DNA of 64,000 nucleotides from Patescibacteria group bacterium (GCA_028866135.1 JAGWIS010000001.1:13357-77356); one strand, 5' to 3'. Shown: positions 35,664 to 59,398, counted from the stretch's first letter. The notes: generated by a model from the sequence alone, not told the origin. Made by a program: numbers and translations.

Positions 35664-35735
35664 TGCCGATGAGTGGAATCGAACCACTGTCTAGGGCTTA
35701 TGAGTCCCTCGTTCTAACCATTGAACTACATCGGC
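35664..35735 (-). tRNA. tRNA-Met (anticodon CAU, elongator type or Ile2), no CCA encoded.
   Basis: Fold: acceptor GCCGATG/CATCGGC, D arm GTTC-AATGGTTA-GAAC, anticodon loop CTCATAA, T arm AGTGG-TTCGATT-CCACT, discriminator A. Confidence 0.7.
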
Positions 35736-59080: not shown

Positions 59081-59398
59081 TTGCGGGGGTGGGACTTGAA
59101 CCCACGTCTGGAGGTTATGCTTGCCACTACAATTTTCATTGCCCTATGGTTTGTGGTCTGGACTATGCCTTCACCCGTCACACTGATTTTAAATCTAGTG
59201 AGGCGGGTGTCTGCCGTCTAGTCTCTACACCTTCTCCGCGATATGGCGAGTCGCCTATCTCACGGAGCTTGGCTCGGTATTGCCTTTCGCTTTTTGCAGG
59301 AAGGGTTCGCCGAATTTGACAGATGATCTTACGCGCAATTACTCGCGCGCACGCCCGAATGACTCAAGCCTCCCGAGGTACCTCTCCTCTACCCCGCT
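59081..59398 (-). tRNA. Initiator-like tRNA-Met (anticodon CAU) interrupted by a group I intron, 318 nt in total.
   Basis: The 5' exon (59398-59367) is AGCGGGG-TA-GAGG-AGAGGTA-CCTC-G-GGAGG-CU. The 3' exon (59119-59081) is CAUAA-CCTCC-AGAC-GTGGG-TTCAAGT-CCCAC-CCCCGCA-A. The joined loop is CUCAUAA. The 3' end CCCCGCAA and the A1-A72 mismatch resemble bacterial tRNA-fMet. Confidence 0.65.
59120..59366 (-). ncRNA. Group I intron (Azoarcus-like IC3 type) in the anticodon loop of the tRNA-CAU gene.
   Basis: The minus strand has GGUGUAGAGACUAGACGGCAGACACC (near-identical to the Azoarcus P7 region) and GGCAUAGUCC. The intron ends with G before the 3' exon, and a P2-like hairpin CGCGC-GAGUAAUU-GCGCG lies near its 5' end. 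Confidence 0.65.

Follow-up and report, generated by a model that had tools for sequence, protein, structure and literature searches.

A tRNA(CAU) gene that is broken within its anticodon loop raises the questions of what interrupts it, which tRNA it encodes, and whether the interrupting element has moved within its genome. Herein, we followed up these questions for a gene on the minus strand of the window, i.e., the whole stretch of 64,000 nucleotides that was analysed, where a preliminary description made from the sequence had seen a group I intron in an initiator-type tRNA(CAU) gene. That assignment is borne out by the Rfam score, by intron-less orthologues, by covariation and by tRNA identity features. 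We conclude that the gene very probably carries a functional, self-splicing IC3-type intron without a homing-endonuclease gene, placed at U33|C34 in the initiator tRNA-Met(CAU) gene of a Patescibacteria-type host; we infer its splicing from structure and conservation.

Boundaries of the intron and the joined tRNA

When the whole 64-kb window was searched against 4227 Rfam families, the group I intron model (RF00028, Intron_gpI) matched positions 59375-59127 over its full length with 56.0 bits (E 1.6e-11). The covariance-model check that had been proposed for the locus thus gave a score above the gathering score of 50 and far beyond chance. The intron is 247 nt long, carries the core motifs GGTGTAGAGACTAGACGGCAGACACC (59231-59206) and GGCATAGTCC (59169-59160) and ends in G (G59120), all as described earlier, and the P2-like hairpin noted in the same description is real (Table 1). 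The accompanying claim that the intron begins with GUG did not hold, since its 5' end reads UGAGUC and the GUG sits at the point where the guide and P2 meet (GGGCGUGCGCGC, ~59352-59350). No endonuclease ORF was found in the intron, where the only ORF is an antisense, overlapping one of 76 aa with no Pfam match.

The splice junction could be fixed from orthologues that have no intron. Downstream of gatA in two close relatives (L002 and L006) the gene reads ...GGGAGGCT|CATAACCTCC..., i.e., exon 1 followed directly by exon 2, which sets the junction at U33|C34 (CU|CAUAA) and confirms the one that had been proposed. The uninterrupted gene at these loci (AGCGGGGTAGAGGAGAGGTACCTCGGGAGGCTCATAACCTCCAGACGCCGG...CCCCGCAA, with the intron-less target site GGGAGGCTCATAACCTCC) differs from the exons of the window only in the T arm, and the 32 nt of exon 1 are identical in L002, L006 and the intron-bearing locus L001. 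U at position -1 and G at the intron end are found in all 51 of the homologues aligned below.

Exon 1 (59398-59367, minus) reads AGCGGGGTAGAGGAGAGGTACCTCGGGAGGCT and exon 2 (59119-59081, minus) reads CATAACCTCCAGACGTGGGTTCAAGTCCCACCCCCGCAA, with no CCA encoded after the discriminator A73. Joined, the exons give a 71-nt tRNA(CAU) with the 3' end CCCCGCAA, an acceptor stem AGCGGGG/CCCCGCA in which A1 lies opposite A72, a D arm GAGG-AGAGGUA-CCUC, an anticodon arm GGAGG-CUCAUAA-CCUCC, a variable loop of 4 nt and a T arm GUGGG-UUCAAGU-CCCAC. For this joined sequence, the ARAGORN call is tRNA-Met(cat) and the fold of minimum free energy a cloverleaf; the exon coordinates, the CUCAUAA loop, the 3' end and the 1:72 mismatch of the preliminary description all agree with the sequence.

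In its interrupted form, the gene was missed both by ARAGORN without intron search and by the Rfam tRNA model. With introns allowed, ARAGORN found the exons and an intron of 247 nt, placed the junction off by 3 nt and reported a tRNA-Ser(tga). This call at 59081-59398 is an artefact, and it was rejected, as CAU is read in the intron-less orthologues and a long variable arm is missing from the tRNA; errors of this kind by tRNA finders have been warned of (PMC13011429). The mis-call could propagate into annotation. The main value of the locus, which is for annotation, lies in this behaviour of standard tRNA finders, which miss the gene or, when introns are allowed, mis-call it as tRNA-Ser(UGA), so that the genome would seem to be without an initiator tRNA.

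A putative promoter precedes the gene, its TATACT ending 7 nt ahead of tRNA position 1 (A59398); in a consensus scan it fell below the threshold. In the upstream regions of the intron family (L081-L189), TATACT or TATAAT lies 6-9 nt ahead of position 1 in many members, and an AT is conserved at -2/-1 of the tRNA-fMet gene. With a promoter-like hexamer so near to position 1, the precursor may have almost no 5' leader, which could relate to the purine that replaces the usual C at this position.

Table 1 Features of the interrupted tRNA gene, its intron and the second interrupted tRNA gene of the window.
Feature	Position	Strand	Details
Putative promoter	59433-59406	minus	TTGCTC 59433-59428, 16-nt spacer, TATACT 59411-59406; predicted
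tRNA-fMet exon 1	59398-59367	minus	32 nt; tRNA positions 1-33; A1 = 59398, U33 = 59367; read from sequence
Group I intron	59366-59120	minus	247 nt; IC3-like; no ORF of its own strand; omega G = 59120
P1	59371-59351	minus	AGGCU|UGAG (59371-59363) pairs with guide UUCGGGCGU (59359-59351); cmscan alignment
P2 hairpin	59350-59331	minus	GUAA (GNRA) tetraloop 59342-59339; 6/6 counted pairs with compensatory changes
P3 5' strand UCUGUC	59323-59318	minus	pairs with 59215-59210; 99.7% of cells paired; compensatory changes in 5/6 pairs
P4-P5 domain	59314-59273	minus	P4 59314-59308/59279-59273; P5 core 59304-59303/59284-59283
P6 and lineage-specific extension	59268-59233	minus	four base pairs with compensatory changes
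P7 5' strand GAGACUA	59225-59219	minus	pseudoknot with 59165-59160; complementary, invariant in 51/51
P3 3' strand GGCAGA	59215-59210	minus	covariation counts
P8 hairpin and loop insertion	59209-59172	minus	6/6 pairs with compensatory changes
P7 3' strand UAGUCC	59165-59160	minus	fixed by the search pattern, so invariance partly by construction
P9	59156-59124	minus	outer stem CCAC/GUGG; inner hairpin 59141-59130, GAAA tetraloop 59137-59134; 4 inner pairs compensatory
tRNA-fMet exon 2	59119-59081	minus	39 nt; positions 34-73; CAU anticodon, T arm, 3' acceptor strand; A73 = 59081
tRNA-Asp(GUC)	27071-26787	minus	interrupted at 35/36 (CUGU|...G|CAC); ARAGORN agrees
tRNA-Asp group I intron	27035-26825	minus	211 nt; RF00028 only 31.6 bits

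Fold, covariation and the proposed splicing pathway

Homologues were gathered by scanning metagenome contigs with a pattern made up of the 3' portion of the intron followed by exon 2, which retrieved 109 contigs that share both the intron and its insertion site. Exon 1, and with it a complete intron, could be placed by a simple script in 76 of 113 records (the 109 contigs plus the window, L001, L004 and L009), and 51 introns that are <88% identical to each other were aligned with MAFFT only. From this plain alignment RNAalifold recovered P1, P2, P3, P4, P5, P6, P8 and the P9 hairpin, and P7 and the outer P9 stem were added by hand before pairs were counted. Standard pairs occupied 96.0% of the cells, compared with 80.0% when partners were shuffled and 33-42% when partners were slid by 1-3 columns, while the covariation score was 0.525 against 0.211 (shuffled) and ~0.1 (slid); not one of 500 shuffles reached the observed value by either measure. 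Changes on both sides were seen in 30 of the 50 pairs, among them pairs of P2, P3, P4, P5, P6, P8 and the P9 hairpin. No variation at all was seen in P7, the outer P9 stem or the exon side of P1, which are therefore silent on covariation; the invariance of the 3' strands of P7 and of the outer P9 stem was partly imposed by the search pattern, and P7, with both strands invariant and one of them fixed in this way, is uninformative. The P3 of the Rfam alignment, which has two mismatches, was discarded in favour of the clean 6-bp P3 given by the covariation analysis.

Several parts of the fold are shared by nearly the whole family. In P1, U33 (59367) forms a wobble pair with G59355, a U-G pair in all 51 homologues, and the GGCU of the exon and the GGGC of the guide are invariant across them, while L2 and L9 are GNRA tetraloops in 50 of the 51 sequences. 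The P6 extension recurs in the metagenome intron L174, and a 5-nt insertion in the P8 loop occurs in two aligned sequences (2/51), the window copy included. One pair of the window copy is non-canonical, a C x A in P4 that is common to nine of the 51 (window plus eight others). A P10, formed by the guide and the CAUA of exon 2, is available to most members of the family; in the clade of the window, only ~1 bp of it is possible. The window copy has lost none of the bases that are invariant among the 51 homologues, and at columns that are at least 90% conserved it deviates only in the P8-loop insertion and at one Y position. Folded as a single sequence, it has a z of -2.8, with P1, P2, P6, P8 and P9 already visible. 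By its pattern of compensatory change and retained bases, the intron is kept under selection for the group I fold.

From this fold, the following pathway can be proposed. The precursor would be transcribed from the minus strand, probably by the putative promoter described above, and the intron would fold into its P1-P9 core, with the guide GGGC (59356-59353) paired to G31-C32-U33 and the U33 wobble pair marking the 5' splice site. Free guanosine, bound in P7, would attack after U33 (59367), the terminal G59120 would then occupy the same P7 pocket, and the freed 3'-OH of U33 would attack after G59120, so that the exons are ligated and the loop CUCAUAA is formed. Guanosine attack, terminal-G swap and exon ligation are the steps of the standard group I pathway. 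With P10 at ~1 bp, the exons are probably held by the anticodon stem and not by P10; that the anticodon stem aligns the exons was shown for the Anabaena pre-tRNA-Leu intron by Zaug et al. 1993, as cited in PMC3984707. The exon target includes G30 and G31, which belong to G:C pairs highly conserved in initiator tRNAs (PMC5389676); this would plausibly account for the lineage staying with the initiator gene.

Host tRNA, integrity of the copy and the tRNA-Asp intron

In the D stem of the joined tRNA, A11:U24 is a purine 11:pyrimidine 24 pair, a feature of bacterial initiator tRNAs. As read from the sequence, the tRNA also has the features that serve as initiator criteria (PMC5389676), i.e., a 1:72 mismatch (here A1xA72), G2:C71, C3:G70 and A73. 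Its anticodon stem (A29:U41, G30:C40, G31:C39) has two of the three canonical initiator G:C pairs, and such an au/GC/GC stem is a natural initiator variant in alpha-proteobacteria and mycoplasmas (PMC5389676). In global alignments to the metZ, metT and ileX genes from the annotated record of E. coli K-12, the spliced tRNA is identical to tRNA-fMet (metZ) at 55 of 74 positions (74%), to the elongator tRNA-Met (metT) at 39 of 76 and to tRNA-Ile2 (ileX) at 42 of 73; blastn of this tRNA and of the tRNA at 35.7 kb against E. coli genomes gave uninformative matches. A29:U41 and the initiator features recur in the Patescibacteria orthologues that were retrieved. In all the Patescibacteria initiator tRNAs seen (L001-L011, L018, L039 and the window) A29:U41 replaces the first G:C pair, and in most of them A1 lies opposite A72, replacing C1 opposite A72. 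By this comparison, A29:U41 and A1xA72 look like lineage-wide Patescibacteria variants.

An uninterrupted CAU tRNA gene is present at 35664-35735 (minus), where the preliminary description had placed an elongator-type tRNA. An intron-free CAU tRNA is indeed encoded there, but the elongator label may not fit, since its similarity to E. coli tRNA-Ile2 (53/76) exceeds that to the elongator tRNA-Met (47/74), and it may be a lysidine-modified tRNA-Ile2 instead. At the bottom of its anticodon stem, A31 and G39 are mismatched. The presence of this gene had been used to argue that the interrupted copy is the initiator; that answer stands on the tRNA identity features, while the elimination behind it is weak, since bacteria typically carry three kinds of CAU tRNA.

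It is highly unlikely that the interrupted gene itself encodes a tRNA-Ile2 (with lysidine-modified CAU) or an elongator tRNA-Met, as the labels 'Ile2' or 'Met' given by tFind to several fMet 33/34 genes (PMC13011429 Table S5) and the missing first of the three G:C anticodon-stem pairs might suggest. The 1:72 mismatch, A11:U24, G2:C71, C3:G70 and A73, together with an au/GC/GC stem that is known in initiators, argue against it, as do the 74% identity to E. coli tRNA-fMet, compared with 51-58% to the elongator Met and Ile2, and the recurrence of the initiator features in orthologues at Patescibacteria loci. That the intron is a decaying, inactive relic in a tRNA pseudogene, with an intact initiator gene elsewhere in the genome doing the work, would fit the C x A pair in P4, a P10 that is down to ~1 bp and a view of the genome that spans 64 kb only. 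We nevertheless regard a relic as exceedingly improbable: every invariant base is kept and the deviations amount to the P8-loop insertion and one Y position, the C x A is common to nine sequences and so is tolerated, the exons are intact and nearly identical to those of functional-looking intron-less orthologues, and Patescibacteria genomes have one to few genes per tRNA type (PMC13011429 supplement table).

For the functional initiator intron that we favour, there remains its relation to the second group I intron of the window, which interrupts tRNA-Asp(GUC) at 35/36, an 'unusual' insertion site (PMC13011429). We think that the low score of this intron (31.6 bits) arises because the Rfam model takes its P2 hairpin for P1. 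The preliminary description had held the two introns to be of the same type and to suggest mobility within the genome, which the comparison does not support. Over co-aligned columns, on which all identities were computed, with published introns taken from the supplement of PMC13011429, the two are 44% identical; they occupy different tRNAs and sites, and each is much nearer to same-site introns elsewhere. For the Asp intron, identity reaches 76% with the published Paceibacteria Asp 35/36 intron and is 64-65% with Asn and Tyr 35/36 introns. Blastn gave no cross-matches between the two window introns, and an endonuclease gene is absent from both. That they are copies of one element moved within the genome, e.g., by reverse splicing, has next to negligible probability. 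Each is a group I intron inside an anticodon loop, and their J6/7-P7-J8/7 motifs are similar (GUAGAGACUAGA, AUAGUCCA), but such core motifs are not confined to this pair and are seen in further bacterial tRNA introns (PMC13011429 table); an identity of 44%, as opposed to 76-79% to same-site introns of other organisms, speaks against a common element, as do the missing cross-matches and endonuclease genes and the differences in guide, host tRNA and insertion site (33/34 vs 35/36). Judged by these identities, the two belong to different lineages that each keep to one tRNA site, and a recent movement of the intron within the genome of the window is not supported.

Lineage, distribution and meaning

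The consensus of the family is compact and comprises P1-P9 only, with one P2 hairpin and without P2.1, P5abc or P7.1/P7.2, L2 and L9 being GNRA loops; these are the features of IC3 introns. By this architecture and by its similarity to introns that others have labelled IC3 (PMC13011429 Table S5), the window intron is IC3-like. Its nearest relative is the fMet 33/34 intron of L001 (79% identical to the fMet intron and 50% to the Asp intron of the window), followed by the IC3-labelled fMet 33/34 introns of Desulfobacterota, Nitrospirota and Omnitrophota (60-68% and 47-50%, respectively) and the IC3 Ile2 33/34 intron of Acidobacteriota (60% and 41%). The IC3 intron of Anabaena tRNA-Leu (50% and 47%), two Met 33/34 introns of Microgenomatia (46-48% and 48-51%) and the published Paceibacteria Asp 35/36 intron (41% and 76%) are more distant from the fMet intron.

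Placed by these comparisons, the window intron is a member, without an endonuclease gene, of the classical fMet 33/34 lineage. This class ('fMet.2Ug') is one of four classical classes of bacterial tRNA introns (Williams 2020, 10.1101/2020.01.27.920355), and its members are 'commonly found' (PMC13011429). The window intron shares with it the tRNA, the site CU|CAUAA, the U at -1, the terminal G and the IC3-type architecture, and departs from it in its Patescibacteria-type host, in having no endonuclease gene, in starting with UG and not CA, so that P10 is almost absent, and in a tRNA with A1xA72 and an au/GC/GC anticodon stem. The first description of a tRNA-fMet intron, in cyanobacteria, is said to be that of Biniszkiewicz, Cesnaviciene and Shub in 1994.

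Among the 76 complete introns, a single one is long enough for an endonuclease gene. This intron (L153, metagenome contig Ga0247842_10000097) measures 638 nt and holds an ORF of 143 aa in its P1 loop, which matches Pfam PF11645 (PD-(D/E)XK; E 5.9e-46) and PDB 2OST (E 5e-49), which we take to be I-Ssp6803I. This homing endonuclease is that of the tRNA-fMet intron of Synechocystis, which reportedly carries the I-Ssp6803I gene, as described by Bonocora and Shub in 2001 (cited in PMC3984707), and L153 resembles this intron in having an endonuclease gene of the I-Ssp6803I type inside. A further known case is the tRNA-Ile(CAU) intron of Azoarcus sp. BH72, an IC3 intron inserted at 36/37, after CAU, with GUG as guide sequence; the 'GUG start' given for the window intron presumably recalls this one. 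We take the two to be alike as small IC3 introns in CAU anticodon loops, with GNRA L2/L9 and very similar P3/P4/J6-7/P7; the window intron differs in its insertion at 33/34, in its guide GGGC and in its host, an initiator tRNA and not Ile2.

In Patescibacteria, Met(CAU) 33/34 introns are known from the Microgenomatia genomes GCA_001029755.1 and GCA_013426185.1 (PMC13011429 Table 1). These are like the intron of the window in phylum, tRNA type and insertion site, and GCA_001029755.1 also has, like the window, a tRNA-Asp 35/36 intron; they are unlike it in being 46-48% identical to it and in having no CAGACCACAAA...GUGGYAAG 3' domain. No Patescibacteria tRNA intron was assigned to IC in the 95 complete genomes of a 2026 survey (PMC13011429), and, unlike the Patescibacteria tRNA introns of that survey, the window intron groups with IC3-labelled introns. 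An IC3-like tRNA intron in Patescibacteria is thus modest news, and the current understanding of group I introns is unchanged, the window intron being an ordinary example of a long-known family.

The neighbouring genes (P-type ATPase, Fur, ZIP transporter, YibE/F, GatA, GatC-like protein and LigA) are ordinary chromosomal ones. In a scan with GatA (one genome per species) the best matches were almost all Patescibacteria assemblies, with a Candidatus Parcubacteria at 78%, an 'uncultured bacterium' at 75% and a 'Patescibacteria group' at 73%. By these matches the host is of Patescibacteria type; its G+C (~0.6) is unusually high. The closest relative, L001, with a GatA 78% identical, has an intron of 220 nt at the same point (79% identical). 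When the tRNA-fMet gene was checked in the Patescibacteria loci fetched by GatA, the IC3 intron was present at 33/34 in three (L001, L004 and L009), and no intron was found in the gene in L002, L003, L005, L006, L010, L011, L018 and L039. A Parcubacteria assembly (L012, 8946-9270) has exon 1 identical to that of the window and a different group I intron at 36/37 (CAU|A...G|AACC; RF00028, 60 bits) that is 47% identical to the window intron, i.e., two different introns have invaded one gene at two sites. Close relatives with the intron, without it, or with another one at 36/37 make this a tidy case of gain and loss. The IC3-type fMet lineage is thereby placed in Patescibacteria-type genomes by three assemblies, in addition to the 109 metagenome contigs, which were counted irrespective of taxonomy.

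This patchy distribution is consistent with homing in the past, after which the endonuclease gene, and now and then the intron too, would have been lost. The lineage would once have spread by homing through an I-Ssp6803I-type PD-(D/E)XK endonuclease encoded in the P1 loop, and the window copy, as it has no endonuclease gene, probably cannot move and would be passed on by vertical descent, with a loss from time to time. Blastn of the locus against phage records gave no match and the pattern scan of viral contigs found none, hence no sign of a phage vector. A reading that would give the retained intron a role is that the interrupted gene is the sole initiator gene of this reduced genome, so that all initiation would need self-splicing and the intron would act as a gate at the RNA level, tying the supply of initiator to nucleotide status. 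If true, the retained intron would not be a neutral passenger, and initiation would be guanosine- and Mg2+-dependent. We consider this very unlikely; purifying selection on the intron structure and a gene that appears to have its own promoter are consistent with it, and the close relatives without the intron, which show that it is dispensable, count against it. Elsewhere in the window, positions 4001-8000 have a G+C of 0.39-0.42, compared with ~0.6 on average in the rest, and may be foreign DNA.
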